Part shown: piece after piece, positions 21,322-44,542 of the stretch
How positions within the stretch are numbered: position 1 is the first letter of the stretch
How the letters are laid out: the number at the start of each line of letters is the position of its first letter
Source of the DNA: Candidatus Nomurabacteria bacterium
GTDB taxonomy: Bacteria; Patescibacteriota; Minisyncoccia; Phycocordibacterales; UBA918
Direction of reading: 5' to 3'
DNA: 64,000 nucleotides
NCBI GenBank assembly: GCA_020632075.1
Contig: JACKGH010000001.1
Span: forward strand, 42,133-106,132
Program-made: the position numbers and the translations under genes
The notes under the pieces: model-generated
The model's database searches: none
What the model was told of the DNA's origin: nothing
What the model saw: only the letters and a program-made list of their open reading frames with translations

Positions 21322-21326
21322 ACCTA

Positions 21327-22090: not shown

Positions 22091-22093
22091 GCA

Positions 22094-22654: not shown

Positions 22655-22671
22655 ATTAGAAAGATAAAATT

Positions 22672-24306: not shown

Positions 24307-24422
24307 CTGGGAGTAAAAATTGAAAGGACTATAATTACTGCTGTAAAAAATAAAGAAAAAGCGCCATTGTCGGCGTTTTTTCTTTTTTAACGATAAGTTT
24401 CAATTTTGTTATACTTGCAACC

Positions 24423-25868
24423 ATGAGTGAGTTGTATGCACAAACATTAAAGTATTTTCACCTTGCAATCACGGAATTCTTACCGACTCTTAGAGAGTTG
24501 TGTGATAACGTAACAGATGCCACCGTAAGAGAAGAGATAGAAGATTTAATTGAGGCATATGAAGATATTGATGCCAAGATAGAATCTCATGGTCTTAATT
24601 ACGATGACCCTAATCGTTCTTACGATGGAGAGCCTGATGAGATCAAAATTGATATCCCAGACGAAATGATTAAAAACTTGGCTCGTCTTTCTCATCGGCT
24701 ACTCTTTGCTTGGAAAAAACGACTTGTAAAACTTCAAAGAAAAACATATCTCACTGACGCTAACAAGGACGAAATTTACAAACTAGAGAATCTAATCTGG
24801 CCAATAGAGGCTTTACTGAAGGCTGAGTCTTATGTTCTGGGCAAATACGCTAATCTAGGTCCTTTGACTTTTCCTGGGGAAACCTCTGATCATGAAGGTG
24901 GAGTGACAAAAAGACTACATGATTTGCTTGAGCAGATTCATTCTTGTTACTCCTTGGGTGATGCAGGAGTTCTAGAGGGACAGCGTTTATCTGACACAGA
25001 AGAGCATGTGAGAACACAAATGACAGAAATTGCAGACGCTGTTGGTAACGAGGTTTTTCAGTTAAAGGTTAAAAAGCTTAACTCTGGATGGAGAACTATG
25101 CTGAAGAGTGGTTTTCATAATAGAAAGACGGCCGAATCTAAGCTTGCTGAGTGGGAGTCAATAATTAATGACATCTTGAAAAATCTTCATCCAGTAGATT
25201 CAGTTGAAAATATTGTAAAGACAATTAAGAATCGTCTAAAAACCGAAGACTTATTTGTTGAGAGTCGGTCTCAGGATGAAGACCAACATCTCCTTATAGG
25301 TAAAAGGGATGGTAGTCCAGAAAAGGCCCATCTGATCATTGACGGAAAGACCGGCGAGATCCGTGTTGAGGACAATCAGCAAGAACCAACTGAATTGATC
25401 AGTAAGATTGAATCGGTTCTCACACTACGTGATGGTAGAAAAATCAGATCAACACGGGAGTCTCTAGAAGAGATTTCAGATCACGATGCAAAACGACCAA
25501 AATTAGATTTGGAGACAAATTTTTCGGTTTCTGGAAGCAGTGCCGGAAACTTCCTAAAGTTTAAAGTTAAAAACGATGGAGAGGAATCTGCTGTTGATGT
25601 TAAAGCCATTTTTGTAGCCGATGGAGAAGAGGTGGAGAAAATTAGCGTTGCACACAGCATTTCACCAACACAATGTAGTCCTGAAATAAACTATCGTTAC
25701 ACAGATACAATGCTCTTTAATAGTCAGATATCTGATGCGAGAGTAAAATTTGAATACAAGGATCGCGCTGGCAATACTTACTTGTCAGGACGGAAACTCA
25801 TTCAAAATGATCGTGCTGACGGAAGATTTAATATACAAAGTAGACCCGGTGACTATTTTGAAGAATAG
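24423..25868 (+). CDS. Hypothetical protein (481 aa), acidic, no recognised domains.
   Basis: Long AT-rich ORF. It is convergent with the recombinase gene and overlaps it by 16 bp. Confidence 0.5.
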   Translation: MSELYAQTLKYFHLAITEFLPTLRELCDNVTDATVREEIEDLIEAYEDIDAKIESHGLNYDDPNRSYDGEPDEIKIDIPDEMIKNLARLSHRLLFAWKKRLVKLQRKTYLTDANKDEIYKLENLIWPIEALLKAESYVLGKYANLGPLTFPGETSDHEGGVTKRLHDLLEQIHSCYSLGDAGVLEGQRLSDTEEHVRTQMTEIADAVGNEVFQLKVKKLNSGWRTMLKSGFHNRKTAESKLAEWESIINDILKNLHPVDSVENIVKTIKNRLKTEDLFVESRSQDEDQHLLIGKRDGSPEKAHLIIDGKTGEIRVEDNQQEPTELISKIESVLTLRDGRKIRSTRESLEEISDHDAKRPKLDLETNFSVSGSSAGNFLKFKVKNDGEESAVDVKAIFVADGEEVEKISVAHSISPTQCSPEINYRYTDTMLFNSQISDARVKFEYKDRAGNTYLSGRKLIQNDRADGRFNIQSRPGDYFEE

Positions 25869-27196
25869 ATGTTGATTTGCTTATCTTGTAGCACAAGTTT
25901 GCTTTTTAAACAGCCCAGTAACTCTCGTTTTTCATAAATTGGTCTCTTTCTTAGAATGTGCTTAGCGTAATTCCGTATATCAATATCTCTCACACTCACT
26001 TTAGTTGAATCTTCTCCTAACACTGATTTCTGGAACTCATTGTGTGCTTCTAGCTCGGCTTTGATACGATCTTTCATACCAATTTCATCGAGTGAGATTG
26101 TGTCGAGTAGTTGCGCTAGTTGCTCAATCAAATCTTCTTCTCTGATGTAGCCACACTTACAGTGTTTATCGTGGAATTTGCTACAACCGTAGTAGACGTA
26201 GCGATGTGTATTGCCGTTTTTCTGTGTCTTGAATTTTTCGTCAGCGCTTATGGTCGAACCGCAGAGTCCGCAACTAATCATCTTAGTGAAGGCGAATTCT
26301 TTGTTTTGAGTTCTTACTACGTGTTCGTTGGTGAGTCTGTTTTGAACTGCCTTGTACAACTCTTTTGAAATTATTGGGTCATGTTTACCTTTGTACCAGT
26401 TACCGCTACCTTTTGGATACTCAAATTCTCCATAATAGAAGGTGTTTTTGAGGATGATATACACGTTGCTAAGCGTGAGTGGTTTTCCGTTCTTTGTTGC
26501 AAACCCTAAGTCGTCCCGAAGCCAGTGGAATATCTTTCGTCCAGACCAGCCATTGTATGCGACCTTCTCAAATATTTGTTTGATGACGTCTGCTCGTTGT
26601 TCATCAATAATCACTTCGCATTTTCGATTCCTGTCAGGATGATTGAGGTATCCAGTCGGTGCGACTGCGGGCCACAGTCCCATTTCACACCGTGCCTTGA
26701 GACCTCGCTTCACATTGACCACCTTGTTGTCATTCTCAAGCTTCGCCTGTGACCCAAGGATCATGAGAAGGAATTTTTCGTTCGGATTGTTCGTGAATCG
26801 TTGTCCGAAGGTGCGGATTTCGTGCAACAATCCTTGGTCCATGAGATCGACGACCGATCCGAGATCTCCTGCGTTACGGGAGAGACGGTCTGGTGCCCAG
26901 GTCAAAATACCGTTAAACTTGCCACTCCTGATCTCAGCAAGTAGCTCGTTGTATATGGGTCGCTGACCAACCTCTTTCGAGGAATGTGATTCACGTTTGA
27001 TTTCAGTAACGTTGAGTTGCTCACGGGAGGCAAGATCAAGCATCTCCCGTACCTGTGATTCGATCGAGAGGGCTTGTTTATCCTCCTGTTCCGTTGATTT
27101 TCGTGCGTAGAGGCAGTACCTGACGGTTGTTTGTACCTCCACTTTTTTCTCTGTCACCAGAGCGTTGCTTGCGTATGTCTCCATTACCACAATCAA
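25853..27196 (-). CDS. Large serine recombinase (phage integrase-type).
   Basis: Resolvase catalytic domain YCLYARKSTEQED...SIESQ, a recombinase domain, and a zinc ribbon CGLCGS...YYGCSKFHDKHCKCG. Confidence 0.85.
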   Translation of the reverse strand: MIVVMETYASNALVTEKKVEVQTTVRYCLYARKSTEQEDKQALSIESQVREMLDLASREQLNVTEIKRESHSSKEVGQRPIYNELLAEIRSGKFNGILTWAPDRLSRNAGDLGSVVDLMDQGLLHEIRTFGQRFTNNPNEKFLLMILGSQAKLENDNKVVNVKRGLKARCEMGLWPAVAPTGYLNHPDRNRKCEVIIDEQRADVIKQIFEKVAYNGWSGRKIFHWLRDDLGFATKNGKPLTLSNVYIILKNTFYYGEFEYPKGSGNWYKGKHDPIISKELYKAVQNRLTNEHVVRTQNKEFAFTKMISCGLCGSTISADEKFKTQKNGNTHRYVYYGCSKFHDKHCKCGYIREEDLIEQLAQLLDTISLDEIGMKDRIKAELEAHNEFQKSVLGEDSTKVSVRDIDIRNYAKHILRKRPIYEKRELLGCLKSKLVLQDKQINIYSSK

Positions 27197-27240
27197 TGAC
27201 GCAATACCCTGAAGGAGTCTAGGGCATCTGAAGTTGGTAA

Positions 27241-28710
27241 CTAAATCGCATCTGGGCGTCCGATGCCTGCAGTGGCGACTCGAGGGCTGTCTTCAAGAAT
27301 TCTAAGAACGACAATTGCGAAAGCGTCTGCAAGGTCATCATGCGTCTCTTTCCCAAAGCCAACCATTTGTTCGATCAGTTCCTCACATCCGACATCGGGG
27401 AAAAGAATCCTGCCTTCTTTTATGAATGAGGTGGTGAGGCGAAGTCGAGCGCCTTTGTCAGCACGCCCAGTCGGTACTCCGACCACATCGTAACGGTTCG
27501 TATCTAAGACCTGTACGAGTGCTCTTTGGTATCCAACGTCCTCAATGTACAGCTTCACACGGTAGCATTTGTCTTTATGTACTGCGTGCAATGCTTTGAT
27601 ATGTTCGACCTGTTCGGGAAAAGTTAATTGCGCGTTCGTGGGATTGGGTTGAATGTATATCTTCATATTCTTCCCATACCCGTAGACGTAGCCGACCACC
27701 ATAGCGGTACAGTCGGCAGAACTTTTCTCACTGATCGCCAAGTCCACCCCAATGGCAATCTGGTGTAACCCTTGGGATGGGAGTGATGAGTACGTTTGAA
27801 TCCATTGTGGTTGTACCACCTGTTCTGCAGTCGAGATGATTTTCAGCATGTATTCGCGGTACCATGACACCTCGTCACCAGTTTTCTCTTTTTCTGCTTC
27901 AACACTCTCTGTGTCGGGATATTTTCCCGGCCATAGCGGGTTATTATCGACATCTACAATCGGGTATTCACGATACATAGCATTGAGGGAATTCATCTCA
28001 CCAGCTTCTATCTTTCGCTGTAGTCGCTTCAGTACCGAATCCTCATGGAGCAGGTTCCCAACAGCGATGATACGTGTGCGCCTACTACCGGCTGGTATCA
28101 TCTCCCCTGTGAGCCAATCGAATGTCTTGTTTCGTCCCTCACGTGTCTTTACTGAATTAATGTCTTCAATGTCATCAAGGATGATCAGGTCTGGTCGATG
28201 TTCACCGTGACGCATACCACGGATGCTCTGCTCGACTGATGTGATCATGATCTTCACGTTGAGCCGTTTGATAATGAGTGCAGTAGCATTCCCAAGACTG
28301 TTCCGTTCTTCTTCAAACGGCCCAAGGTCTCGCTTGAGGAGTTCGTTGTGCAGAAGTTCGTTTTTTATGTTTGTGAGATATGCCCGCGCCTTTTGTTCGG
28401 TTTGCCCTGCAATGACGATGAATTTACGCTGTTGAACGCCTAAAATCGCCCACAGCACGTATGCAGTGGTGATAATGGTGGATTTAGCTGATCCTCGAAA
28501 CGCAACGATCACCGCAAGCTTCACGCTTTCATCTTGTAGGATGCGGAAGAGGTCAACATGGAAGGGTGCAACCTCATACTCAATGTATTTGTGAAAGTAG
28601 ATCGGAAAAAAGTGTTCGAAGCTTTTTTGCACGAGGTTTCGACGAAGCGAATGGTCGGAGAGTACTTTATCGAAAAAGTCTTCGACACTACTTTTCTTTT
28701 TTCTTGCCAT
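27241..28710 (-). CDS. Phage terminase large subunit.
   Basis: ATPase Walker-A-like AFRGSAKST, a C-terminal RNaseH-like nuclease region with acidic residues (DVGYQ, HDDLADAF), and adjacency to a terS-like gene. Confidence 0.65.
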   Translation of the reverse strand: MARKKKSSVEDFFDKVLSDHSLRRNLVQKSFEHFFPIYFHKYIEYEVAPFHVDLFRILQDESVKLAVIVAFRGSAKSTIITTAYVLWAILGVQQRKFIVIAGQTEQKARAYLTNIKNELLHNELLKRDLGPFEEERNSLGNATALIIKRLNVKIMITSVEQSIRGMRHGEHRPDLIILDDIEDINSVKTREGRNKTFDWLTGEMIPAGSRRTRIIAVGNLLHEDSVLKRLQRKIEAGEMNSLNAMYREYPIVDVDNNPLWPGKYPDTESVEAEKEKTGDEVSWYREYMLKIISTAEQVVQPQWIQTYSSLPSQGLHQIAIGVDLAISEKSSADCTAMVVGYVYGYGKNMKIYIQPNPTNAQLTFPEQVEHIKALHAVHKDKCYRVKLYIEDVGYQRALVQVLDTNRYDVVGVPTGRADKGARLRLTTSFIKEGRILFPDVGCEELIEQMVGFGKETHDDLADAFAIVVLRILEDSPRVATAGIGRPDAI

Positions 28711-29110
28711 AGTGATTTACGGACGAGAGCCGAAGCGCCTCTTTTATGAGACGCTTTTGCTCTTTCGTTAATGGTTCATCAGTCGATACCTTTCCTGAAA
28801 TCTCAAGCTTGTTGCTGTACCGAGAATTGTGCGTGGTCAAATACAAGCGAATTGCTTTAAACTCTCGATCACCAATAAGAGAAAACAGTTGATTCTCCGC
28901 AACATCAGACATAAACGTTCGACCCTCAACAAGCGCATCTTCGACCTGTTTTTTGAAACGCTTGTTGCTATTGATCCAGCGATACACAGTGGCTCGACCA
29001 ACACCCACTTTCTGACATGCTGTCTCGATGGTTGGGGTACGTTTAAGTTGCTCAAGAAACGCTTCCTTGAGTTTCTTTTGCCGAGCGTGAATAGTGTCAC
29101 GCCTGCTCAT
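28688..29110 (-). CDS. Terminase small subunit-like HTH protein.
   Basis: MSRRDTIHARQKKLKEAFLEQL...TACQKVGVGRATVYRWI has a HTH and sits upstream of TerL. The start was chosen at the internal Met to avoid overlap with the MTase. Confidence 0.5.
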   Translation of the reverse strand: MSRRDTIHARQKKLKEAFLEQLKRTPTIETACQKVGVGRATVYRWINSNKRFKKQVEDALVEGRTFMSDVAENQLFSLIGDREFKAIRLYLTTHNSRYSNKLEISGKVSTDEPLTKEQKRLIKEALRLSSVNHYGKKKEK

Positions 29111-29864
29111 ACGGTTTTGCTTTAATGCTGGTAAGTTTCTCGAAGCGGGCAATGATAGTCGCACAGTACTCAGGGTCGAGTTCAATACCTACACACTTTC
29201 GCTTAGTCTGCTCGCAAGCGAGTAGTGTCGTTCCAGAGCCAAGAAAGCTATCGAAAACAACATCACCGACTCGAGTGCTGTTCAGAATCAGACGACGAAT
29301 CAAATCAAGCGGTTTTGTGGTCGGATGCATCTTGCTTTGGTTTGGCTTTGGACACACGAGCACACTCTTATCTTTGGATTTCACAAACTCATGTGTGCCG
29401 TACCAGCCATACACAATCAGTTCATGTTGTGGTGCGTAATCAAGCCGACCTACAACTGCATGCGTCTTCACCCAGATAAGTAACTGGGCAAACTTCACAT
29501 CTAGTTCATTCATCGCTTCTCGCAGCGCAAACACCATCTTGTCTGCGTTGAAGATATAGAGACCATTCTTTCGTTCTAGATGTGATAACACAGGAGCAAG
29601 CCATGCTTTGGTGAATTCGCGATATTCATCGTCACTTTGGATATGGTCGTTGGTAATTACTTTGTCTTTAGCGAGAGTCTGGAAGTTACGTTTACTCTCC
29701 GTTACTGCCACTCCATACGGAGGATCACTTATAACCGCTTTGATCTTTTTATCTCCAATAATCTTGGCTACTAGCTCAGCATTCCGAGCATCACCACAGG
29801 CGAGGACATGCTCGCCAAGCACGAAGATGTCTCCGTGCTTAATTGAGTTTTGTAACTGGCTCAT
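29097..29864 (-). CDS. DNA methyltransferase (N6-adenine/N4-cytosine family, DPPY).
   Basis: Motif IV SDPPYGV and motif I FDSFLGSGTTLLACEQ. Confidence 0.85.
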   Translation of the reverse strand: MSQLQNSIKHGDIFVLGEHVLACGDARNAELVAKIIGDKKIKAVISDPPYGVAVTESKRNFQTLAKDKVITNDHIQSDDEYREFTKAWLAPVLSHLERKNGLYIFNADKMVFALREAMNELDVKFAQLLIWVKTHAVVGRLDYAPQHELIVYGWYGTHEFVKSKDKSVLVCPKPNQSKMHPTTKPLDLIRRLILNSTRVGDVVFDSFLGSGTTLLACEQTKRKCVGIELDPEYCATIIARFEKLTSIKAKPYEQA

Positions 29865-31119
29865 GTGAGAGTTTCTTAAATCGGTTGATAATCACCTGAC
29901 AGAAGACAGGCTCTATTTCGTTGAGGTACGCAGTACGCTTTAGCTGCTCGCAAGCTGAGAGAATACTCCCTGAGCCAGCGGTCAGGTCGAGTACAGTGTC
30001 TCCTGGTTTGGTACAACGGCGTAATGCTTTTTCGTGCAGTGTCGGATTCTTCTGGGTTGGATGTTCATATTCGCTACCAGGAATCCGCTTTACGAGCCAG
30101 ATGTTGAAGAGGTCTAGAATGTCGTCAGTTAGCCGATTGCCAGAAGAGACTTCTTTATTAATCACTTCGTTAAGATTCTTCAGTGAGTCATTCAGATACG
30201 GCTTACCAACCGTGCCGTACACGCAATATTCAGTAACTTTGTTGAATGCCACCTTCGGGGTGGGTGACTGATTGTCTTTGATCCAAATACAGAGCCGCTT
30301 CGAATCTACTCCTAGCTCTCGGTAGAGTTGCTGGAATAACCAAACGTATCGCTCGTCGGTCCAAAACATTACATGAGCGTCTGGTTTTGCTACCGACAGC
30401 GCATTTTGCATGATGGTGCGGATAAACAACTGATACTCATCGTCAGATTTGTTGTCATTTGTAGTACCACCGTACTTTGCTTTATTCCCGACACCTTTGT
30501 CGTATGACAATCCTATATTGAATGGCGGGTCGTCGTTTATGAGATCTATTCGCACACCATTAGTGAGTTGCTTTACTGTCTCGGGATCTAAGGCATTTCC
30601 ACACATCAGACGATGTCTACCAAGAGAAAAATAATCTCCTGGTTTGATGTTTGTATCCTGTGCGTTCTCTACCTCTTTCTTTTCATCAAACTCATCATTC
30701 ACAATCTCTAAGTTGTCATCGAATATGAATGACAAATCTTGTGACTCAAATCCAGCTAGTAGGAGTTCATCAATGTTGAAATCTGATGCGAGCTTTTCGT
30801 AGTCCCACGTTCCGCCTGAGCGGTTTGAGGTGAGAAGATAGTCACGAAATTCAGCTTTAGTGAGTGGTCGATTTGGGACTCGTACTTCAATCTCTTCTTC
30901 TTCACGACCAAGGAGCGATAGTGCCAAGACCCGCTGATTTCCAGCCACCAAGGTTCCGTCTGTGTTAATACAAGGCAGCTCAGCAACGTTGAACTTGTTG
31001 AGACTACGCTTCAGTCCCTCTAGTTGAGAGTCTGTGAGTTTACGGGGATTTTTCCCGTATCTAATAAGGTCTTTAACTTTCCGACGTTCAGTACGCCAGA
31101 CTAATTTTTGTTTAGCCAT
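29839..31119 (-). CDS. ParB-like nuclease domain fused to a DNA methyltransferase (N6A/N4C family).
   Basis: The N-terminus RYGKNPRKLTDSQLEGLKRSLNKFNVAELPCI...AGNQR is ParB/Srx-like. It is followed by DDPPFNIG (motif IV) and LDLTAGSGSILSACEQ (motif I). Confidence 0.85.
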   Translation of the reverse strand: MAKQKLVWRTERRKVKDLIRYGKNPRKLTDSQLEGLKRSLNKFNVAELPCINTDGTLVAGNQRVLALSLLGREEEEIEVRVPNRPLTKAEFRDYLLTSNRSGGTWDYEKLASDFNIDELLLAGFESQDLSFIFDDNLEIVNDEFDEKKEVENAQDTNIKPGDYFSLGRHRLMCGNALDPETVKQLTNGVRIDLINDDPPFNIGLSYDKGVGNKAKYGGTTNDNKSDDEYQLFIRTIMQNALSVAKPDAHVMFWTDERYVWLFQQLYRELGVDSKRLCIWIKDNQSPTPKVAFNKVTEYCVYGTVGKPYLNDSLKNLNEVINKEVSSGNRLTDDILDLFNIWLVKRIPGSEYEHPTQKNPTLHEKALRRCTKPGDTVLDLTAGSGSILSACEQLKRTAYLNEIEPVFCQVIINRFKKLSHEPVTKLN

Positions 31120-31151
31120 GTTATGTGGGCTTAACTACTAATCAGTCCAAC

Positions 31152-31186
31152 AAAAACACCAACTCAAATAAATGGTTGGTGTTTTT
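31152..31186. promoter_or_regulatory. Perfect 12-bp-stem hairpin in the divergent regulatory region between the MTase operon and the XRE gene.
   Basis: aaaaacaccaac-tcaaataaatg-gttggtgttttt. A related AAATGGTTG motif repeats at 31228-31241. Confidence 0.4.
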
Positions 31187-31506
31187 GCTTTCAGCCTTAA
31201 GAGATAGTTGACGAATGCAACAAACAGCAACCAAATGGTTGTATTTGTTACCTTCGTCAAAGACCCCTTTGTCTCCGATCAGTGACTGACCGGCTCCGGC
31301 ATCCTCCTCTGACTCATCAAATACTTAAAAGTATCTGGTCGCCGCATTTTGTTATGGCGCTGAAAGGCGTATGTGTTCCTGATGAACCTACTTATAAGGG
31401 TAGTACGTTTTTGAAATTACGCAACCTAGTTATTCAGAAGTAGGTAACTAAGGCTTCGCAAATACCCTGAAGTAAGCTAGAGTGCCAAAATAACTACAAA
31501 AAAGCG

Positions 31507-31788: not shown

Positions 31789-31798
31789 TTTTAATAAC

Positions 31799-32305: not shown

Positions 32306-32307
32306 TT

Positions 32308-34800: not shown

Positions 34801-34808
34801 AATAGAAT

Positions 34809-36269: not shown

Positions 36270-36273
36270 GCTT

Positions 36274-36867
36274 ATGAATGATCACTTAGACTTCAACACA
36301 GATTTTTTAAATAATCCTGTTTCTGGTAAGAATCAGGGTCCATCTAATGATAACCAACCCAAAAATGGTGGGGGTAAAAAAGGTTGGATTATAGCAGCAG
36401 TCATCTTCGGTGTCCTTATTGTTATTGGTGCGATGGAAGATTCTGGTTCAACAGGTTCAACTTATACACCAACAACCAACTCGACGTACAGCAACAACAC
36501 GAACACTTCTGCTGATCATTCATTAGTATTTGATGGGCAAACTTTTAGATGTTCTGATTATCACTATGATAAAGCGATGGCATTGAGGCCAGACGCAACA
36601 CTGAGCGCACAAATAGATTCAGAGAGTGCAGCTCTAGATTTGCGTATTAGTAGTCTAGACTCAGAAGCGGCTAGGATAGACGCAATGTATGTTGATGAGT
36701 ATAGCCAGTGGTCGATTGATAACTACAACGCAGCTGTTGATGCATATAATGTTAAGAAAAATAGACTACAAGCCGATATTGATAGTTGGAATCTAAAAAA
36801 CACTTCTTTTAATAGAAAAATTGATGCTTACAACAATTACCTAGATACTAACTGCCGACCACAATAA
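36274..36867 (+). CDS. Single-pass membrane protein with an extracytoplasmic domain (197 aa).
   Basis: TM WIIAAVIFGVLIVIGAM. A Thr/Ser/Asn-rich linker follows, with repeated AYN/YN motifs. Confidence 0.5.
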   Translation: MNDHLDFNTDFLNNPVSGKNQGPSNDNQPKNGGGKKGWIIAAVIFGVLIVIGAMEDSGSTGSTYTPTTNSTYSNNTNTSADHSLVFDGQTFRCSDYHYDKAMALRPDATLSAQIDSESAALDLRISSLDSEAARIDAMYVDEYSQWSIDNYNAAVDAYNVKKNRLQADIDSWNLKNTSFNRKIDAYNNYLDTNCRPQ

Positions 36868-36870
36868 ATT

Positions 36871-37926
36871 ATGTCAATTCAAACAAAACCAATTCTACAT
36901 AATGGCTTTGAAATCAGAGAAGGCCTAAAAGTAAAGAGTCGTATCGACAAGGTATTTTTCACTGAGATTTATCACCTTGATAACGACACATACTTCTACC
37001 TCTTCCTAAATCTCAATCCTAACGAAATTATCGATAAGCGAGGGCGGTATGAATTAGTGAGGATTAATATCTCTTCTAAGGAGTGGATTGGAGCTATTGT
37101 AAAAAGTAATACTAACCCCGCTTCTGTCATTGAGGAGTTAACTACTCTGCGAGGATTTGATCAGATTGCTGGAATGCAAGAACTAAAGAATCTATTGATT
37201 GCAGAAGTGATAAATCCGCTACGAGATCCTGCTAGATTTGAAAAATTCAAAGTGTCTATACCTAACGGAATTTTGCTTTACGGTCCTCCGGGATGCGGAA
37301 AAACCTTCATCGTAAGAAAACTTGCGGAAGAGCTGGGATATAACTTTTTTGAAGTAAAACACTCAGACCTTGCAACGCCTTTTATACATGGATCAGTAGG
37401 TAATATTGGTAAGGTTTTTGAAACCGCAAAACAGAATTCACCAGCTGTTGTATTTTTTGATGAAATCAGTGGTCTTGTACCAAACCGTCAAAATTTGAAT
37501 GATTCATCTTCACACAAAGAGGAAGAGGTTAACGAGTTTTTGATTCAGCTTAACGATGCTGCTGATAATAATATTCTAGTTGTAGGTGCAACGAACTATA
37601 TTGATCGAATTGACCCAGCGATATTGAGGCCAGGACGAATGGATAAAAAGATTCATGTCCCACCACCTGACGCAGAAGCCAGAAAAGAACTATTCAAGCT
37701 TGGTCTTTCAGGTCGTCCGCACGATGAGAATATCGACTTTGAACACCTAGCTAAAATAACCGATGGCTACAGTAGCGCTGACATTATTGAGGGTATAGTT
37801 GAAGGAGCTGCTCGTCTGGCTGCGAACATGGATAAACAAGAAATTGATCAGGAACTACTAGAAAAAGAAGCAGCTAAACTTAAACCTGTAGAAGAAGAAA
37901 AGCCGAGATTTGGTTTCGGTGCGTAA
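36871..37926 (+). CDS. Classical-clade AAA+ ATPase (CDC48/FtsH/Vps4-like module) with an approximately 100-aa N-domain.
   Basis: Walker A GILLYGPPGCGKTF, Walker B VVFFDEISGL, and a second region of homology with Arg fingers GATNYIDRIDPAILRPGRMDKKIHV. Confidence 0.8.
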   Translation: MSIQTKPILHNGFEIREGLKVKSRIDKVFFTEIYHLDNDTYFYLFLNLNPNEIIDKRGRYELVRINISSKEWIGAIVKSNTNPASVIEELTTLRGFDQIAGMQELKNLLIAEVINPLRDPARFEKFKVSIPNGILLYGPPGCGKTFIVRKLAEELGYNFFEVKHSDLATPFIHGSVGNIGKVFETAKQNSPAVVFFDEISGLVPNRQNLNDSSSHKEEEVNEFLIQLNDAADNNILVVGATNYIDRIDPAILRPGRMDKKIHVPPPDAEARKELFKLGLSGRPHDENIDFEHLAKITDGYSSADIIEGIVEGAARLAANMDKQEIDQELLEKEAAKLKPVEEEKPRFGFGA

Positions 37927-37937
37927 TTTAGTAATCA

Positions 37938-38600
37938 ATGGAAATCGACTCAAAAGAAATCATTCTGCAATTGTTGAAAGGGATGTGGGAAATGAAGTCA
38001 CTATACCTCATGCTGTTTGGAGTGGTTGTCTTGGCCTTAATTGCAAGAATCCTTATGGATTTGATGAGCCGACAAAGTCAAATTAAGTGGTTTCTAGGCA
38101 AGCAAAAAGTTCAGGACTTGCAAAAGCTCACACCTTCACAATTTGAGGAATATATCGCCGAACTATTTAAATCACTTGGCTATCAAGCAGTTGTAACTGG
38201 CGGTAAGGGTGATGGAGGAGTCGATGTTGAAGCAGAAAAAGACGGCATCAAACACTACATTCAATGCAAAAAATTCATCACATCAAAAGTACCCGTTGGA
38301 GCAGTGCGTGACTTCTACGGTGCTATTGCAGATAGGATTGATGGTGGAAAGGGTTATTTCATCACTACAAATGTTTTTACACTTGATGCTGAACATTTTG
38401 CAGAAGATAAACCAATTGAACTAGTTGATAAGTTCAAGTTGATGGAATACATGCACATGGCGAATGTGGAAGTTCCAGAGTCCACTCCCGTCGTGTGTCC
38501 AAAGTGCGGATCCGAGCTTATTCGTCGCAGTGGTAAATACGGTCCCTTTATGGGCTGTAGTACGTATCCAAAGTGTGACTACACAAAGAAACTCGCATAA
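37938..38600 (+). CDS. Membrane-anchored Mrr-type (type IV restriction-like) PD-(D/E)XK nuclease fused to a topoisomerase-type C4 zinc ribbon.
   Basis: N-terminal TM LYLMLFGVVVLALIARILM; Mrr_cat-like FEEYIAELFKSLGYQAVVTGGKGDGGVDVEAEKDGIKHYIQCKKF; and C-terminal CPKCGSELIRRSGKYGPFMGCSTYPKCDY. Confidence 0.65.
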   Translation: MEIDSKEIILQLLKGMWEMKSLYLMLFGVVVLALIARILMDLMSRQSQIKWFLGKQKVQDLQKLTPSQFEEYIAELFKSLGYQAVVTGGKGDGGVDVEAEKDGIKHYIQCKKFITSKVPVGAVRDFYGAIADRIDGGKGYFITTNVFTLDAEHFAEDKPIELVDKFKLMEYMHMANVEVPESTPVVCPKCGSELIRRSGKYGPFMGCSTYPKCDYTKKLA

Positions 38601-38606
38601 GGTTAT

Positions 38607-39677
38607 ATGGATAAAGAAGTCGCATATAAGCCAAACACAACAGCCTGTGAGGATCTACCATATCCAATAGTATTATATCCCGGTTTCTACGGCTCCTTTT
38701 TCGCATTTAAGCAGAATAAAAAAGCAAAACCTCACTTTTGTTCATGTGCGTACGAAGCAATAGAAAACTACATTAGAATCAGACAGTCATCTGAGATTCC
38801 ATTGAACTCATACCCTGATCGTATGTACTTATTGGATTCCCACGATTTTCCAAAATCTGTTGTCCAGACTTTGATGCAATCCAACATACCTGACGATCAG
38901 GTGTTGGCGAATCTTAACTTTGCTGACAAGTTATGTCATGAGTGCAATTTGCAAACTCCTTCGTATCGCTATTGTGTAGAGATGTACGGAGGTGCATTCA
39001 AGCAAAATTATGGTTGGTACATAGGAAAACAAGCATACGAGTGGGGTTTTGATAGGAGTAAAAGTAAGTTGTTGATCGACAGTTTGTGTCCTGAAGATCT
39101 TCTTGAGTTGGTCAATGATGAATCCTTCCAGTATGGTAGAAAGAGACGAAGAGAAATTGCAGATAAAACGTTTGAGTTCGATAGAGATTTTGCAAACATT
39201 TCAGATGTAGATCGACAAGAATACAGTGCTTTGTTCCAAGAAGCTCGAAATATTGATAAAAGTCTCTCAAAACACTACAGAAAGATCAACAATGTTGTTG
39301 AGAACGAAGTGCGAAGGAAATTTGGTCATAAGAATGTTGGTGAAGCATGGACTAGTGAAACAATTCTCTACTACATAGTAAAAAAACTATATCCTGAACA
39401 TACAATCCACCGTCACTATCGTCCTGACTTTTTAGATGGTCTAGAATTAGATATTTACATTGAGGAGCTGAATATAGGTATTGAGTACCAAGGCATTCAG
39501 CACTACAAGCCAGTAAAACACTGGGGTGGTGAAGATGCGTTAAAAAAGTTGCAACAAAGAGATAAAAAGAAGAGGAATATTTGCAAAAAGATTGGAATTC
39601 CACTTATCTATTTTGAACATGATGAGGGATTGAGCGATAGTCTAGTTGTAGCGAAGTTAAGTGATTATGAAAGTTAG
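38607..39677 (+). CDS. Hypothetical protein with a C-terminal DUF559/Vsr-like PD-(D/E)XK endonuclease domain.
   Basis: The C-terminus HRHYRPDFLDGLELDIYIEELNIGIEYQGIQHY...RDKKKRNICKKIGIPLIYFEHDE aligns with the DUF559 core (YIVDF...LVIELDGGQHY...RD..L...G..VLRF.N.E). Confidence 0.5.
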   Translation: MDKEVAYKPNTTACEDLPYPIVLYPGFYGSFFAFKQNKKAKPHFCSCAYEAIENYIRIRQSSEIPLNSYPDRMYLLDSHDFPKSVVQTLMQSNIPDDQVLANLNFADKLCHECNLQTPSYRYCVEMYGGAFKQNYGWYIGKQAYEWGFDRSKSKLLIDSLCPEDLLELVNDESFQYGRKRRREIADKTFEFDRDFANISDVDRQEYSALFQEARNIDKSLSKHYRKINNVVENEVRRKFGHKNVGEAWTSETILYYIVKKLYPEHTIHRHYRPDFLDGLELDIYIEELNIGIEYQGIQHYKPVKHWGGEDALKKLQQRDKKKRNICKKIGIPLIYFEHDEGLSDSLVVAKLSDYES

Positions 39678-40239
39678 AATAAAGAAATTGATACAAAGAT
39701 TAAAAACTGACAAGAAACTGGCAGGTCTTTTTTTTCTATATGTTGCTACGGTGGTCGTTGTTTCTTATTTATTTATTCAGTGGCCTGAATATGCAAACAA
39801 GACTACCTACATTCTTTTCCTAATTTCTCTAATGCTGGTCACGTTGTTTACTTGGTCAATGGCAGCGTTGGCTATCTTCAGGTCTCTTCTAGTTGTTGGT
39901 GCAGGACTATCACTAGTGTTGTTCATTGCTCAATCGTACTGCGCCTTACCTCTTAACGAACAGGTTGCAGACGACTCTCTACAGAGCTTGATTGGAATAA
40001 GTGTTTTGTTTATAGGCGTGATGTTTTTTAATCGACTGTACCGCGAGCTGTTTGGTAATCCAGAATCGAAGCGTGAATTTGATAAGCTTGGTGCACTTAA
40101 AGTCTTTCGGGAAGCAAACAAAGGTAAGGATTCTGTTTTAATCCTTGTTCTTTACGCTTCCTTTATGGGTCTTATTCTAGGTCAGTTGTTCCAAGTTTTG
40201 TTCCCGATTTTTATTAACCTTTGTGTTTATCAACCATGA
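39667..40239 (+). CDS. Multi-pass membrane protein (about 5 TM).
   Basis: Overlaps the upstream stop; has five hydrophobic helices. Confidence 0.5.
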   Translation: MKVRIKKLIQRLKTDKKLAGLFFLYVATVVVVSYLFIQWPEYANKTTYILFLISLMLVTLFTWSMAALAIFRSLLVVGAGLSLVLFIAQSYCALPLNEQVADDSLQSLIGISVLFIGVMFFNRLYRELFGNPESKREFDKLGALKVFREANKGKDSVLILVLYASFMGLILGQLFQVLFPIFINLCVYQP

Positions 40240-40883
40240 CTGAATTATTAAAAATAGTACACAAATGTGTAGACAAGATTAAAGACGATTTTCTTTTGTT
40301 TTCAGTTGCAACTTTAGTATTAATGGTTGCTTTTCCAGAAGCAAAGATGACAACCTTCATTGTCTATGGCACTGCGGTGCTTATTTATGTTGTCGTAACT
40401 CTGATTAAAAGTAGAAAGCAGGAAACGAACAATCGTTTTTTACAGAATGTAGATGATTTCTTAAACGATCCAGCTTCTTGGGAACGTCGCACTATTGATC
40501 ATTCAGATGTCTATTTCTATTCTAGAGATAACAATTACAAAATTGTAACTGGTGACGAGTCAATACGTGAGTGGGAACCAAACATTGAACCTTGGATGCA
40601 AAATTTTCCAGACCCTCATGTTTCTGAGTACAACGTGTATTTAAAGCATGGAGAGAACACAATTGCAGAGTATAAATTTGTATATTGTGATGGTGCAAGA
40701 TATTTTATGCCCTTACCTAAAAAGCGTTGTGCTGAACCAGGAGATGATTTCAGATGCAATAGGTTCGAGTATATTTGGAATCGCAATTCAATCGAATATA
40801 AAATTGGTACTGTAATAGGTGATTTTTATAGGTATGAAAATCTGGAAGAGGTAGCTAGATTCTGCGGTATCGTGATTGAGTAA
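40236..40883 (+). CDS. Membrane-anchored hypothetical protein (2 TM plus a soluble domain).
   Basis: ATGA start/stop overlap with the upstream gene. TMs are FLLFSVATLVLMVAF and FIVYGTAVLIYVVVTLI. Confidence 0.5.
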   Translation: MTELLKIVHKCVDKIKDDFLLFSVATLVLMVAFPEAKMTTFIVYGTAVLIYVVVTLIKSRKQETNNRFLQNVDDFLNDPASWERRTIDHSDVYFYSRDNNYKIVTGDESIREWEPNIEPWMQNFPDPHVSEYNVYLKHGENTIAEYKFVYCDGARYFMPLPKKRCAEPGDDFRCNRFEYIWNRNSIEYKIGTVIGDFYRYENLEEVARFCGIVIE

Positions 40884-40897
40884 TCTATGGATTTTGT

Positions 40898-41845
40898 ATG
40901 TATAAAAACTTATATGACAAACATAAAATTAGAGGTGCCTTTATTACAGAAGACAATAAGAAGTTAATAGTAAACTTCGAGTTTTCAAACAAGGTAGTAT
41001 CCTTTAACAAAGGTCAGCTAATCGAAACGACTGAGACCTTAGAGAGGGCGGAAGTGAAAACTGTACTAGAGAAAGATAAGTATTTTGTATGTGTTGTTTC
41101 GACACCTGAAGCTGACCTCGATTTTCTTTATAAGATTTCCCTCGCGATTGCTTATGTAGTTGGTCAGAATTTTGAACTTCAATACTACTTCAAAGAATTT
41201 CCATACTATCCAACAAGTCACCACTGGAACATTGATAGCTGCAATCCAATATCGCGAAGACTTTTTGAAGACCTTTTACGTTCACCAAGTAACACTATCA
41301 GATTTTTACTTTCATTATTGCGCGATGACGCAACTGCTTTTTCACAACTTGTACCAACAATGTTGGTAGTAAACGCATACAATCACTCAGAAGTAAGCTT
41401 TATTACAGAGTTTGGTCTATTACAAAAGCTTTCCAAGAGGCACGATGCCGACAGTAAGTTGTTCACAGCCGAAAATGATCTAGATAAGCTATCACAGTTT
41501 TCTAATACAATACTTGAAACACTCCAGTTAGATTATACTGATATCAATATACCTGCACTAGAAAAGAAGTTATCGACAGAAAGCTTAAATAGTAAAACCG
41601 CTACAAACGAAAAGATTGTTTCGTATTTAAACAGTTTTGATAAAGAAAGAATAAAGTCGTGTGCTGAATATGTCCCACAATGGAATAAGTTGAGAAGTTC
41701 TGCACTTGTGACTCACGGAGGCAGACCGATCAATGTCAAAGATGCAGATAAACGTGGAAAAATGCACAAACTTCACGAACTATTATTGGACATAGTTAGT
41801 CTAGAGGTAAATGCAAAATATGGAGATGCTGGCATTCTAGACTGA
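40898..41845 (+). CDS. Hypothetical soluble protein (315 aa).
   Basis: In-operon ORF; no motif recognised. Confidence 0.45.
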   Translation: MYKNLYDKHKIRGAFITEDNKKLIVNFEFSNKVVSFNKGQLIETTETLERAEVKTVLEKDKYFVCVVSTPEADLDFLYKISLAIAYVVGQNFELQYYFKEFPYYPTSHHWNIDSCNPISRRLFEDLLRSPSNTIRFLLSLLRDDATAFSQLVPTMLVVNAYNHSEVSFITEFGLLQKLSKRHDADSKLFTAENDLDKLSQFSNTILETLQLDYTDINIPALEKKLSTESLNSKTATNEKIVSYLNSFDKERIKSCAEYVPQWNKLRSSALVTHGGRPINVKDADKRGKMHKLHELLLDIVSLEVNAKYGDAGILD

Positions 41846-41865
41846 TGAGCATACAATGAGGACTA

Positions 41866-43194
41866 ATGGAGTATCTCAAACCAAAACACTACTACACTGA
41901 CCTCTACGATAAACATACAGTCGAACGCTGTCGTCGTATTGAAAGTACGAATAGCATGCCTGATGCAGATCGCCCGAAGAAAGTCAGTAAGAAAGAAGCT
42001 GAAGCAATCAACGACTGGGCACACAACCTCATCCTTACCTTTGAGAAAGGGTCTCGCTGGTCCAATAAAGAAAAGACCATTAATGATTGGATGGAGAGAG
42101 ATAGAAGACGAGACGAGCTATTAGAATCAGCCAAAGCGCCAGAAGATATCCGCTGCCTCACGTGTCGTAATCGTATGGAACCTAATCACCGACAGCTTTG
42201 GCACGGTGATGAAGATAAGCCAGATCGTGTCCTCTTTATGTATGACTGCCCGAACCAGTGTCTTCCACGGCGGGCATTTTTTGATGATGGTAAGGAATGG
42301 CGCAGTACCCCACACCTCTGTGCTCGTTGTGGCAATCCAACCAATCACACGGTCTCTGATGACAAAGAGAAAATGGTCACAACGTACACTTGTCCAACTT
42401 GTCATCATGTTGAAGTTGATGAGTACGTCTGGAATAAGCCAGAAGATGAATACGATGAACACTTCGCGACGGATCGTGATCGATTCTGTGTTTCAGATGA
42501 AGAAGGGAGAAATATAGAAGACATGAAATGGCAAATGGAGCGCATGGGTGACTTTGCTAAGGAGTGGGAAGAGAAAGAAAAAGCTCGTGCCAAGAAACTA
42601 GAGGAGAACCCAAAAGGATTTCACCTTGAGGGTGCTGGCTATACTTGTTCGATTTGTCGCAATAGTACCCCTGCAGGAGACAACTGGTACGATAAATGGG
42701 GTATCAAATGTCTAGTGTGTCAGTGGTCCATTGATCATAAAGAAATACCAGCCTCACTCGCCAAGAATGAGGATAGCTGGTATCGAAAGTATGACTTTGA
42801 ACACTATTTTAATGTGAAGGGTCAGACGCTCAATAAATGGGTTAGAGAAGGTCTGGTAAAAGCTCGAACGGTGAGTCGTTACGGTGAAGGTGTGCATACG
42901 CAAGTATTCCTTGTCAAAGATAACAAGGATTTCCTGCCTCCTAAGAAGTTACTTGAATCAAAGCGGGGTCGAGTTGTAGAGAATGGCAAAGAGGAGGTGC
43001 GAATACTGCCTTGGTACTGCTTTGGTGATCCGCACGAAATATTGAAAGGATACAAGATCATGGATTATTTACGAGTACTGTCTCCAGAAGAGGTAGAACA
43101 ACGAGAGAAAGAACGTCAGGAGAAAGCGGAGAAACGCAGACTGCATCGTGAGAAAGTAAAAGCTGCTAGAGAGAAGCGCAAGAAGCGTAAATGA
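41866..43194 (+). CDS. Multi-zinc-ribbon protein with a Lys/Arg-rich C-terminal tail.
   Basis: Three CxxC...CxxC pairs (CLTCRN...CPNQC; CARCGN...CPTCHH; CSICRN...CLVCQW), a GGA-rich RBS, and a tail EKRRLHREKVKAAREKRKKRK. Confidence 0.55.
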   Translation: MEYLKPKHYYTDLYDKHTVERCRRIESTNSMPDADRPKKVSKKEAEAINDWAHNLILTFEKGSRWSNKEKTINDWMERDRRRDELLESAKAPEDIRCLTCRNRMEPNHRQLWHGDEDKPDRVLFMYDCPNQCLPRRAFFDDGKEWRSTPHLCARCGNPTNHTVSDDKEKMVTTYTCPTCHHVEVDEYVWNKPEDEYDEHFATDRDRFCVSDEEGRNIEDMKWQMERMGDFAKEWEEKEKARAKKLEENPKGFHLEGAGYTCSICRNSTPAGDNWYDKWGIKCLVCQWSIDHKEIPASLAKNEDSWYRKYDFEHYFNVKGQTLNKWVREGLVKARTVSRYGEGVHTQVFLVKDNKDFLPPKKLLESKRGRVVENGKEEVRILPWYCFGDPHEILKGYKIMDYLRVLSPEEVEQREKERQEKAEKRRLHREKVKAAREKRKKRK

Positions 43195-43428
43195 GACAGT
43201 GACCGAGATGGGTGATTTATGTCTCATTTGTCTCACTTGCAAAAACAGCAGCATGACCGAAGTGCCTCTGCTAAAGAGTAGAAGGAGGTGTAATATGTCC
43301 TTAGGTTGCTTGACCTCAGAGGTTCAGAACCGTAGTGGGCAGCCTTGACTTTTAAATATTTAATGCTATTATTTTAATAGTAGATTTTTCTAATGTAAAT
43401 CCACAAAGCAATTTCCAAGGAGGTAATT

Positions 43429-44043: not shown

Positions 44044-44102
44044 GCCGCCTCACCAAGAAAACCGGTGGAGGCGGTTTTCTTTTGTCTAAATCACAAAGAA
44101 AG

Positions 44103-44482: not shown

Positions 44483-44542
44483 ACGCCCTACGTAGAAATT
44501 GCTCTACGGAGGGCGATTTCTATTTTAAATACTCAAAAAAAG

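Follow-up and report, generated by a model that had tools for sequence, protein, structure and literature searches.

Gene content of the locus

The 64 kb stretch of DNA analysed here (the window) carries, in the middle of an island of 28.6 kb, five minus-strand genes that form one tight operon, with gene overlaps of 14–26 nt and no minus-strand terminator inside it (Table 1). All five genes are intact. The large serine recombinase, TerL, TerS-like HTH protein, two DNA methyltransferases and XRE protein named in the initial annotation were all confirmed by Pfam and PHROG matches, one of the methyltransferases being fused to a ParB domain. The TerL has no Pfam match; its P-loop (AFRGSAKS), LIILDD(I)ED and C-terminal D323/HDD458-459 motifs are invariant in 17 homologues. 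The recombinase aligns over residues 27–412 with the SPbeta integrase 9dxh in the PDB (2e-13). Two Logan contigs terminate near 31160, in the divergent intergenic region. As first noted from the sequence, the island lacks capsid, portal, tail and lysis genes: none of its ORFs matches such a family in Pfam or PHROGs. None was found elsewhere in the 64 kb. Replication genes were not recognised in the core or in the island, and no conserved operon regulator is present in the window.

Table 1 Features of the island and its ends (window coordinates)
Feature	Position	Strand	Basis and remarks
tRNA-Gln(CTG)	14656–14727	+	ARAGORN, Rfam; 3' end toward island
Trailer, ~210 nt, conserved, tRNA-proximal island end	14728–14935	+	Invariant 21-mer 14861–14881; terminator hairpin ~14892–14925
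DUF2127 membrane protein, PAP2 phosphatase, SHOCT-domain protein (slot A, part 1)	14925–16678	-	Pfam
Copper cluster (slot A, part 2)	16715–24306	+	Pfam
Predicted CsoR operator/promoter	16715–16745	+	ATACCCCCTAGGGGGTAT; palindrome read from sequence
csoR	16749–17018	+	Pfam
P-type ATPase (CopA)	17021–19057	+	Pfam
139-aa gene, rhodanese-DUF1573, DUF1573, DsbA-like, 186-aa gene		+	Between P-type ATPase and multicopper oxidase
Multicopper oxidase	22672–24306	+	Pfam
481-aa protein, cargo	24423–25868	+	Weak CARDB match; converges on recombinase gene, 16 nt overlap
Large serine recombinase (integrase)	25853–27196	-	Resolvase, Recombinase, Zn_ribbon_recom; phrog_95 (9e-66); last gene of operon
TerL (terminase large subunit)	27241–28710	-	phrog_38 (3.5e-78); NCBI MCB9815826.1
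TerS-like HTH protein (terminase small subunit)	28688–29110	-	PF13022, several TerS PHROGs; 23 nt overlap with TerL
N6/N4 DNA methyltransferase	29097–29864	-	PF01555 (3e-32), phrog_498
ParB-domain/DNA methyltransferase fusion	29839–31119	-	PF01555, phrog_498, phrog_620; first gene of operon
Divergent intergenic region	31120–31506		Hairpin 31148–31187
Cassette 1 (slot B)	31507–37926	+	Pfam, PADLOC; XRE, 168-aa (weak GrpE), 830-aa Hsp70-like, 486-aa, 197-aa, 351-aa AAA ATPase (IetA/TRIP13-like)
XRE	31507–31788	+	First gene of cassette 1
Slot B, part 2	37938–43194	+	Pfam/PADLOC/PHROG matches; Mrr_cat nuclease with Top1 zinc ribbon, 356-aa (HNH/homing-endonuclease-like PHROGs), 192-aa, 220-aa (PDC-S50), 315-aa, 442-aa Cys-rich protein
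Approximate tRNA-distal junction	43195–43346		GC, contig end, tRNA look-alike

Island limits and composition

From its sequence, the region at 14.7–43.3 kb is best read as a single integrated member of a conserved integrative-island family. Comparison with related loci places the left limit at the tRNA-Gln gene, which is the probable integration target. With this start, the copper cluster at 14.9–24.3 kb belongs to the island, and the initial limits of 24400–43300 are corrected on the left and retained, as approximate, on the right. The host flank up to the tRNA gene (SerRS, Dus, DnaX, His_Phos_1) is syntenic in L004 and L168, and both flanks within the window consist of housekeeping genes. 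At the right end, GC climbs to host level across the junction interval, an ENA contig from another sample (L172) begins at 43260, and a weak look-alike of the tRNA-Gln 3' end lies at 43320–43344 (16/25 matching; 17/25 from 43319 in the other register), followed by a host-type promoter repeat.

The AT-richness initially ascribed to the whole region holds for much of the cargo, where GC is 0.374 at 31.5–37.9 kb and 0.393 at both 37.9–43.2 kb and 24.4–25.9 kb. It does not extend to the phage-like module (0.455 versus 0.49–0.50 in the host flanks). The copper cluster, at 0.452, has the same composition as the module.

Cargo slots

Slot A is bounded by the recombinase and by the trailer that abuts the 3' end of the tRNA. 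Judged by its gene families, its content here is copper resistance. CsoR/CopA/DsbD-cupredoxin/MCO genes also lie beside the module in L005, L015, L034, L076, L077, L080, L082, L106 and L298. The DUF2127, PAP2 and SHOCT genes are missing from the syntenic locus L004, and the 481-aa protein was found only in contigs of the same organism.

Slot B, upstream of the methylases and on the opposite strand, holds an Hsp70-like/AAA cassette and candidate defence genes of nuclease type. Cassette 1 recurs as a unit in L166 and L168/L169 (46–82% identity), with variants in L004, L295 and L297/L298; among relatives its place is slot A, slot B or a prophage-like region. The XRE protein, initially taken for a regulator within the phage-like set, belongs, on this comparative reading, to the portable cassette rather than being a regulator conserved with the terminase module. 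The 442-aa protein has relatives in 11 other loci, again upstream of the module and on the opposite strand.

A recurrent module in CPR genomes

At least 367 GTDB species genomes, along with many metagenome contigs, contain profile relatives of the TerL. By record title the hosts are mostly Patescibacteria (CPR), with non-CPR taxon labels, as recorded, on about one third of the genome records. We examined 82 loci, 80 kept by the TerL profile scan and two contigs of the same organism. Of these, 78 have the ParB-methyltransferase, 79 the methyltransferase, 81 TerS and 63 the recombinase, with constant order and strand; in about half of the related loci the ParB-methyltransferase occurs without the second methyltransferase. 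ORF clustering puts the recombinase downstream of TerL, in the same orientation, at 51 of 81 genome loci; tblastn with IMG/VR contigs included puts it downstream of TerL at 77 of 109 module loci. The 80 genome loci show no other conserved gene family and no structural gene up to 10 kb from the module. IMG/VR contigs with a TerL of at least 43% identity carry the same module, and more than 100 fetched loci showed the five genes in unchanged order, again with no structural genes. The islands form a widespread and apparently undescribed mobile family of the ultra-small CPR (Patescibacteria) bacteria.

Values of dN/dS are 0.01–0.18 across the module genes (0.016–0.053 for the recombinase, 0.03–0.07 for TerL), indicating strong purifying selection. 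Such low values, the invariant ATPase and nuclease motifs of TerL and the tight gene overlaps together suggest that the function of the module has been retained. In 12 related loci a LexA-like S24 repressor is encoded upstream of the module, divergently in 10 of them.

Neighbour-joining groups 112 element TerLs in a single clade, outside which fall the 28 TerLs from module-less loci, five of which are confirmed phage contigs (L112, L113, L119, L122 and L124). Four of these (L113, L119, L122 and L124; TerL identity 34–41%) have the order TerS-TerL-portal(+MuF)-protease-MCP. L119 also has a ParB-methyltransferase upstream and the methyltransferase-TerS-TerL order of the module, followed by the portal. 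The position after TerL is thus occupied by the portal in phages and by the recombinase in the elements. On these sequence relationships we consider that the core operon is phage-derived and then had a history separate from that of phages.

tRNA linkage and mobility

In all 24 related loci with a recombinase after TerL and a visible tRNA, the first tRNA beyond the recombinase is antisense to it (Gln 10, Ser 10, Glu 4). TerS, TerL and the recombinase are oriented toward slot A and the tRNA wherever a tRNA is visible, and the nearest-neighbour recombinase has the same tRNA type in 17 of 22 cases. The trailer matches no Rfam family and shows compensatory pairs. At least 120 JGI metagenome contigs contain its 21-mer, and of the 41 loci with 3 kb or more of downstream sequence, 28 have an antisense recombinase there.

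Trailer identity is 91–94% among L004, L005 and L008 despite differing tRNAs and flanks. Between L004 and L008 the recombinases are 97% and the trailers 91% identical, while the tRNA-Gln isoacceptors differ and the flanks are unrelated. L029 and L032 share 91% identity across 6.4 kb, with the match ending ~26 nt inside tRNA-Ser, where both tRNA-Ser genes are alike anyway. Modules are mosaic, recombinases of 96–97% identity occurring alongside TerLs of 61–73%, and some related loci have tandem modules.

Three related hosts carry an element at the same tRNA-Gln locus. Relative to the window, TerL identity is 71% and SerRS identity 85% in L004, and 44% and 74% in L168. Element divergence approximately parallels host divergence, which suggests that long vertical residence also plays a part. 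As to an excised form, no fetched contig has a terminal overlap, the end motif is absent from IMG/VR, and no circular form was found.

A satellite-like reading and its alternatives

The observed family, its architecture, selection, tRNA linkage and cargo are best read as those of a helper-dependent, satellite-like integrative element, for which we infer packaging, a helper phage, excision and transfer; we give this reading about an even chance. The serine recombinase would integrate the element at tRNA-Gln, and those of sister clades at tRNA-Ser or tRNA-Glu. Induction of the operon would yield methylases, terminase and recombinase together, possibly under control of the divergent LexA/S24 repressor in some relatives. 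TerS and TerL could then fill procapsids of a helper phage with an SPP1/Mu-type portal with element DNA, which the methylases may pre-protect against restriction in the next host. We identified no helper phage, the closest TerL in a phage context being 41% identical, and found no pac site. Known satellites usually replicate to provide packaging substrates, and that no replication gene was recognised counts against the satellite-like reading. So do the absence of an excised form among the contigs examined, the lack of a conserved operon regulator in the window, the signs of vertical residence, and the mid-island position of the module, from which headful packaging in situ and in one direction would not take up the whole element.

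The terminase pair might instead be kept to sabotage the packaging of an infecting phage, by DNA cutting, mis-packaging or procapsid titration, on a defence island that spreads rarely, through transformation or recombination. Consistent with this, the cargo is mostly of defence type (here the Mrr nuclease, IetA-like AAA protein and PDC-S50; in relatives R-M, reverse transcriptase and PLD-SNF2 genes), replication module and circular form were not found, and elements persist at one locus in related hosts. We nevertheless regard it as unlikely, as co-transcription of recombinase and terminase, narrow tRNA specificity and near-identity of recombinase and trailer in unrelated contexts point to active site-specific movement. 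In known satellites such as SaPI/PICI, interference and self-transfer do not exclude each other. Another use of the same genes would be in-situ packaging as in lateral transduction, with a headful start from the unexcised island that exports the slot A cargo and the chromosome past the tRNA. Mu-like phages package integrated DNA, and the Mu-like SuMu and BalMu-1 are among the phages with the closest deposited TerLs; the absence of a replication module also fits, as does the fact that TerS, TerL and recombinase face slot A and the tRNA at all loci with a visible tRNA. This is a rather remote prospect, given that identity to the Mu-like TerLs is just 24–29% and that a conserved, strongly site-specific integrase implies that integration of the whole element matters. 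Slot B would also be left untransferred.

Head, tail and lysis genes could also be encoded elsewhere in the same genomes, as they would be in a split prophage or in a GTA-like system; some other bacteria are known to have dispersed GTA loci, and the inspected span covered ~10 kb to the left and right of a module and, here, 64 kb. Nothing structural lies within these spans, however, the genomes are ~1 Mb, and a site-specific integrase and tandem copies suit a mobile element better than a domesticated system; we hold this slightly more doubtful still. The degraded prophage of the initial annotation, as a one-off portal-to-lysis deletion that joined TerL to its integrase, would agree with the gene order shared with phage contig L119. 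It is very improbable and we reject it, since the truncated architecture recurs in >100 loci of many lineages with dN/dS far below 1 and a monophyletic TerL clade distinct from phage TerLs, and since all five genes are intact here. The satellite-like reading, also raised initially together with its accessory systems, thus stands as the best available one, but not as membership of the PICIs.

Comparison with known systems

In its cargo only, the island resembles two defence systems. Its Hsp70-like NBD protein, of ~830 aa, precedes a helical-repeat protein, an arrangement described for CnuD of the CoCoNuT systems (PMC11090510), and the AAA ATPase matches IetA models of IetAS at 2e-33. Unlike these systems, the cargo has no McrB-type GTPase, McrC/DUF2357 or IetS protease, and the cassette includes an XRE of its own besides a GrpE-like first protein.

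The terminase is most akin to Mu-like and SPP1-like headful terminases: the best deposited phage TerL matches include Mu-like phages, and in related phage contigs the portal is of SPP1 type with a fused MuF-like domain. Identity to the deposited phages is just 23–29%, and sequence matches in the PDB are weak (T7 gp19, 3e-5). SPbeta and skin of Firmicutes share the integrase domain set, a phage origin and terminase genes. As prophages, complete or defective, they have structural genes and interrupt protein-coding genes, whereas the present family lacks structural genes and sits at tRNA genes. Serine integrases are not known to target tRNA genes, the 14 of 297 mapped cases being unproven (PMC7192596).

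Like SaPI/PICI, the family consists of integrated islands with no capsid, tail or lysis genes, with their own small terminase, accessory or defence cargo and, in some relatives, a divergent repressor. It differs in a large serine rather than tyrosine integrase, in encoding TerL besides TerS, in two core methylases, in its size here (28.6 kb) and in its CPR hosts. The island also has no recognisable primase/replicase or origin module, Stl- or AlpA-type regulator or capsid-size redirection genes. Membership of the PICIs is rejected on the different integrase type and the absence of a replication module and of a master regulator. The cf-PICIs encode capsid, portal, protease and connector, none of which the island has; they are satellites that bring their own terminase and do not merely redirect that of the helper, and this they have in common with the family described here.

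Extent and composition of the island

The island lies between two blocks of housekeeping genes. Read from the tRNA side, it comprises a trailer, three minus-strand genes, a csoR-copA copper cluster ending in a multicopper oxidase, a 481-aa protein of unassigned function, a minus-strand module of five genes (ParB-MTase, MTase, TerS, TerL and a large serine recombinase) and 12 plus-strand cargo genes. Pfam and PHROG matches for the module genes confirm the gene content named in the initial annotation. The same scans, applied to island ORFs and to the flanks within the 64-kb window, returned no capsid, portal, tail or lysis gene, so the reported lack of structural genes stands. The description of the region as AT-rich holds for the plus-strand cargo (GC 0.37-0.39, against 0.50 and 0.49 in the flanks) but not for the module (0.455) or the copper block (0.452).

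Coordinates of features in the window and in related loci (L-numbers, contigs from genomes and metagenomes)
Feature	Location	Strand	Description
Left host flank	window, to tRNA-Gln		SerRS, Dus, D-Ala-D-Ala carboxypeptidase, DnaX, His_Phos_1; housekeeping
1438-aa ORF	window 954-5270	+	conserved host flank
Partial tRNA copies	window 14600-14640; L168 8975-9010; L023 16387-16411; L005 15140-15240		beside intact tRNA
tRNA-Gln	window 14656-14727		end of left host flank
Trailer, ~210 nt	window 14728-14935	+	directly 3' of tRNA-Gln; invariant 21-mer TGCATACCTGCTGAGAGCAGT; intrinsic terminator at end
Trailer copies	L004 14192-14397; L008 15299-15502; L005 11312-11522; L168 9112-9230; also L175-L254
CsoR-type operator palindrome	window 16715-16745		ATACCCCCTAGGGGGTAT; inside TTGAC..TATAAT-like promoter, 5' of csoR-copA
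TerS-like gene	window 28688-29110	-	alongside TerL
Assembly breaks	window ~31160 (L001/L002); 43260 (L172)		separate metagenome assemblies of this organism
Slot B cassette	window 31507-37926	+	XRE, GrpE-like (168 aa), Hsp70-like (830 aa), 486 aa, 197 aa, AAA ATPase
Far island end (less certain)	window 43194 to ~43347		442-aa gene stop to host-type promoter
tRNA 3'-end look-alike	window ~43320		16-17/25 matched
Right host flank	window, from ~43.4 kb		membrane protein, pseudopilin-like genes, HI0933-like protein, PyrB, ArgRS; housekeeping
Right-flank gene	window 43429-44043		preceded by TTGAC…TAATGCTA element
Promoter-like repeats	window 44094-44161; 44534-44601; 45128-45158		…CCAGCGAGATTGACAAATAG.ACTTAATGTGCTA…; 5' of small genes
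743-aa protein	window 56578-58809	-	HECW_N, SKICH and GDSL lipase domains

The left limit first proposed, at 24400, does not coincide with any boundary; the tRNA-side end is the trailer that follows tRNA-Gln. Up to this tRNA, the left flank of the window is also found in L004 and L168, two contigs from related hosts (SerRS 85% and 74% identity, DnaX 77% and 58%), and each then bears an element of the same family. A single gene separates trailer and recombinase in L004, as compared with 11 kb, copper cluster included, in the window. Trailers of L004, L005 and L008 are 91-94% identical, though their flanks and tRNA-Gln genes differ: anticodons are CTG or TTG, and L005 keeps just degenerate tRNA 3' ends. 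This conservation across differing tRNAs and flanks, together with the synteny of L004 and L168, supports placing the tRNA-proximal end of the element at the trailer and assigning whatever lies between trailer and recombinase to internal cargo (slot A). The trailer is unlikely to be a mere host 3' flank of tRNA-Gln, since it follows either Gln isoacceptor and in three cases tRNA-Ser, an intact tRNA is sometimes absent, and it is better conserved across hosts than the tRNA itself.

The 21-mer of the trailer occurs in at least 120 metagenome contigs, mostly 47-290 nt past a tRNA-Gln and followed by cargo and an antisense recombinase. Compensatory changes are present at 19 of the 57 pairs of the predicted fold (RNAalifold, five copies), and an Rfam search of the trailer returned no family. 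The trailer may be an element-borne small RNA or an attachment arm for the integrase.

The far end is less certain. Its placement is supported by a shift in GC and by a contig from another sample that begins at 43260. We did not rely on the tRNA 3'-end look-alike nearby because the match is weak and a tRNA 3'-end repeat was found at the far end of none of 12 other tRNA-bearing loci. Direct or inverted repeats that could serve as att sites around 24.4-43.3 kb were at chance level, the element end motif had no match in IMG/VR, and none of the fetched contigs had the terminal overlap of a circular assembly. The initial annotation had proposed comparison with relatives lacking the island to define the junctions. 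The left end was placed through contigs that themselves carry an element; on the right, the orthologues of the flanking gene at 43429-44043 are in non-syntenic relatives and did not yield an empty site. The assembly breaks at either side of the plus-strand cargo suggest strain-level variation at its edges.

Among features of the host flanks, one of the small genes behind the promoter-like repeats at 44-45 kb encodes an N_methyl pseudopilin, and the element before the right-flank gene at 43429 resembles these repeats. The 743-aa protein has Pfam matches to HECW_N (4e-19) and SKICH (8e-17), domains whose names come from eukaryotic proteins, along with a GDSL lipase domain, which is unusual for a bacterial protein. 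The 1438-aa ORF had no Pfam match.

A conserved module across CPR genomes

A TerL profile search identified relatives in at least 367 species-representative genomes. We compared 82 loci with flanks of up to 10 kb, consisting of 80 kept from the profile scan and two contigs of the same organism; about 26 of the 80 genome records bear non-CPR taxon labels, as deposited. Searches with the window proteins (tblastn) recovered ParB-MTase in 78, MTase in 79, TerS in 81 and the recombinase in 63 of the 82 loci, with identical gene order and strand throughout. When 1,488 ORFs were clustered all-against-all, the module genes were the only conserved families and the remainder was variable. IMG/VR contigs with a TerL of at least 43% identity carry the same module.

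Neighbouring module genes overlap by 14-26 nt, no minus-strand terminator was found inside the operon, and dN/dS of all module genes is 0.01-0.18 (Nei-Gojobori). The window TerL is identical to NCBI MCB9815826.1 ('Candidatus Nomurabacteria bacterium'), encoded on a contig of 1,004,653 bp, and PF17289 is precomputed on its homologues. The AFRGSAKS P-loop, the LIILDD.ED Walker B motif and the nuclease residues D323 and HDD457-459 are invariant in the alignment, so that the protein is predicted to retain the ATPase and RNase-H-like nuclease residues of a functional terminase. In the search for its packaging family, the best deposited phage TerLs, among them those of Mu-like phages, have just 23-29% identity, and matches from a PDB sequence search were weak. 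With PF00239 (Resolvase), PF07508 (Recombinase) and PF13408 (zinc ribbon), and with residues 27-412 aligning with the SPbeta integrase, the recombinase is a large serine recombinase. As judged from these comparisons of sequence, the module is a conserved operon under selection, in which a complete terminase and a serine integrase are coupled to two methylases.

Contigs with more distant TerLs (34-41% identity) that we inspected, L113, L119, L122 and L124, are real phages that encode, besides TerS and TerL, a major capsid protein, a protease/scaffold and a portal of the SPP1 type with a fused MuF; L113 has a near-identical counterpart in L112, and in L119 ParB-MTase also lies upstream. In a neighbour-joining tree of 141 TerLs, 112 from elements form a single clade and 28 from module-less loci fall outside it; L082, an element cut by the contig end, is the sole apparent exception. 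Given the separate clade and phage relatives in which the portal comes after TerL, we conclude that the operon was cut from a phage late region just after TerL and then diversified as a terminase-only unit. A one-off degraded prophage, which was one of the two original readings of the island, is excluded by the absence of head, tail and lysis remnants, by the recurrence of the same architecture under selection across many loci, and by the distinct TerL clade.

Identities differ gene by gene between elements (L004 and L008, recombinase 97% and TerL 73%; L029 and L056, 96% and 61%), a mosaicism typical of mobile elements that exchange genes. Two modules of different subfamilies lie 10-25 kb apart in three contigs (L018, L077 and IMGVR_UViG_3300014205_009253, with L083 and L111). 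Divergence of element and host run in parallel at one shared locus, thus long vertical residence also occurs. Derivatives that are decayed or lack TerL also exist: TerL is broken into two ORFs in L025, and in L203 TerS adjoins the recombinase and leaves no space for TerL.

Linkage to tRNA genes

The recombinase follows TerL in 77 of 109 module loci, and 24 of these 77 have a tRNA beyond the recombinase. The first such tRNA is on the opposite strand in every one of the 24 (Gln 10, Ser 10, Glu 4). The element reaches up to the 3' end of the tRNA or into it. Upstream of modules there are just six tRNAs in 584 kb. The closest recombinase relative has the same tRNA type in 17 of 22 cases. The use of tRNA genes as targets by serine integrases has been considered unproven (PMC7192596).

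Partial tRNA copies beside the intact gene take several forms: a mini-hairpin repeating both strands of the acceptor stem in the window, an exact 25 nt of the D/anticodon arm in L168, and repeated degenerate tRNA 3' ends with pieces of trailer in L005. They may be scars of successive integrations.

Cargo

At least nine other loci have genes for CsoR, CopA, DsbD-cupredoxin, DsbA-like proteins and multicopper oxidase next to the module. Copies of the csoR promoter and operator of the window lie just past the trailer in L175, L184, L188, L195, L211 and L220; the copper operon therefore travels as a regulated cassette.

The plus-strand cargo beyond the methylases (slot B) begins with a cassette that includes an Hsp70-like protein; L166 and L168/L169 have the whole set of genes together, at 46-82% identity. 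L004, L295 and L297/L298 have a more diverged variant with additional genes, and the cassette also occurs in L248. Across versions, the fourth and fifth proteins are ~486-530 aa and ~200 aa long, and some versions add Yip1, DUF6804 and an NfeD/S49 protease. The cassette sits in slot A directly past the trailer in L168/L169, within a prophage-like region with a tyrosine integrase in L166 and L295, and in L297/L298 in the same layout as in the window (copper genes, module, cassette). Since XRE recurs with these genes in L166 and L168/L169, it is part of this portable cassette, and we rejected it as repressor of the module.

The Hsp70-like part resembles CnuD of CoCoNuTs (PMC11090510), and the AAA ATPase resembles IetA. 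PADLOC identified no complete named defence system in the cargo, only single components (IetA-like AAA, Mrr/type IV REase-like and PDC-S50). The Hsp70-like cassette is absent from PADLOC and may be a new system of defence or exclusion. An exact sequence look-up found no record of the Hsp70-like protein, probably because the gene start was called otherwise. The remaining slot B genes encode a nuclease of the Mrr type with a zinc ribbon, HNH-like and PDC-S50-like proteins and further uncharacterised proteins. The Cys-rich 442-aa protein has relatives on the same side of other elements; a PDB sequence search with it gave nothing useful. Cargo of other elements includes R-M systems, a reverse transcriptase and PLD-SNF2 proteins. 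In 12 loci the module is preceded upstream by a gene for a LexA-like S24 repressor, which is transcribed divergently in 10 of them.

Possible mechanism

As far as gene order and sequence identity in the loci compared indicate, elements of the family are linked to tRNA genes, have moved between unrelated contexts, occur in tandem in some contigs and show turnover of cargo. We consider that the element probably works most like a phage satellite. The serine integrase would insert it at a tRNA; on induction, the terminase would load element DNA into helper-phage capsids of the SPP1/Mu portal type, and the methylases would protect this DNA in advance. Several observations count against a satellite: the module is in the middle of the island, element and host divergence run in parallel at one shared locus, no helper phage was identified, no excised form was seen, and no primase, helicase or Rep was recognised among island genes or conserved neighbours in 80 loci, where unannotated proteins remain.

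Other explanations are an island that acts by interference only and a split prophage with its structural genes elsewhere in the genome. The terminase might instead start headful packaging on the integrated island, as a platform for lateral transduction in situ. The nearest deposited phage TerLs include those of Mu-like phages, which package by the headful mechanism directly from integrated DNA, and neither replication nor excision would then be needed. In this reading, which we regard as improbable, CPR bacteria would have in the module a DNA-export device that stands alone and sends slot A cargo (copper resistance, defence cassettes) and adjoining chromosome into the capsids of any compatible phage. 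If true, genes would flow among these ultra-small episymbionts by a major route that has so far gone unseen, and serine integrases would for the first time be found to use tRNA genes systematically.

Comparison with known satellites

The CPR bacteria (Patescibacteria) account for a large part of the diversity of bacteria. Their known phages, defence systems and mobile elements are few (PMC12366544, PMC12455944). We found no earlier description of a family of CPR elements with terminase and serine recombinase in the literature searched, and other papers may exist. The family is fairly notable for the many CPR genomes in which it is found, for its minimal design and for the way serine integrases and tRNA genes are systematically paired. 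Present in hundreds of species genomes, it would be a concrete and testable means of horizontal transfer, and of spreading genes for defence and metal resistance, in the reduced genomes of CPR bacteria. It would also be a large natural collection of serine integrases tied to tRNA genes, of relevance to the biology of integrases and to the discovery of genome-engineering tools. IMG/VR files such loci as viral contigs, so CPR 'viruses' may be over-counted by discovery pipelines.

The initial suggestion of a PICI-like satellite is apt in some respects. Like PICIs and SaPIs, the island is without capsid, tail and lysis genes and has its own packaging gene, a TerS-like gene to which TerL is added. 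In replication, regulation and type of integrase it is unlike them: it is without a recognised autonomous replication module, it has no Stl/AlpA-like gene (the LexA-like repressor is present in 12 relatives only), and it carries a large serine recombinase where they have a tyrosine integrase. It differs from cf-PICIs in having no capsid, portal or protease of its own. With a terminase but neither capsid nor replicon, it would represent a minimal satellite design.
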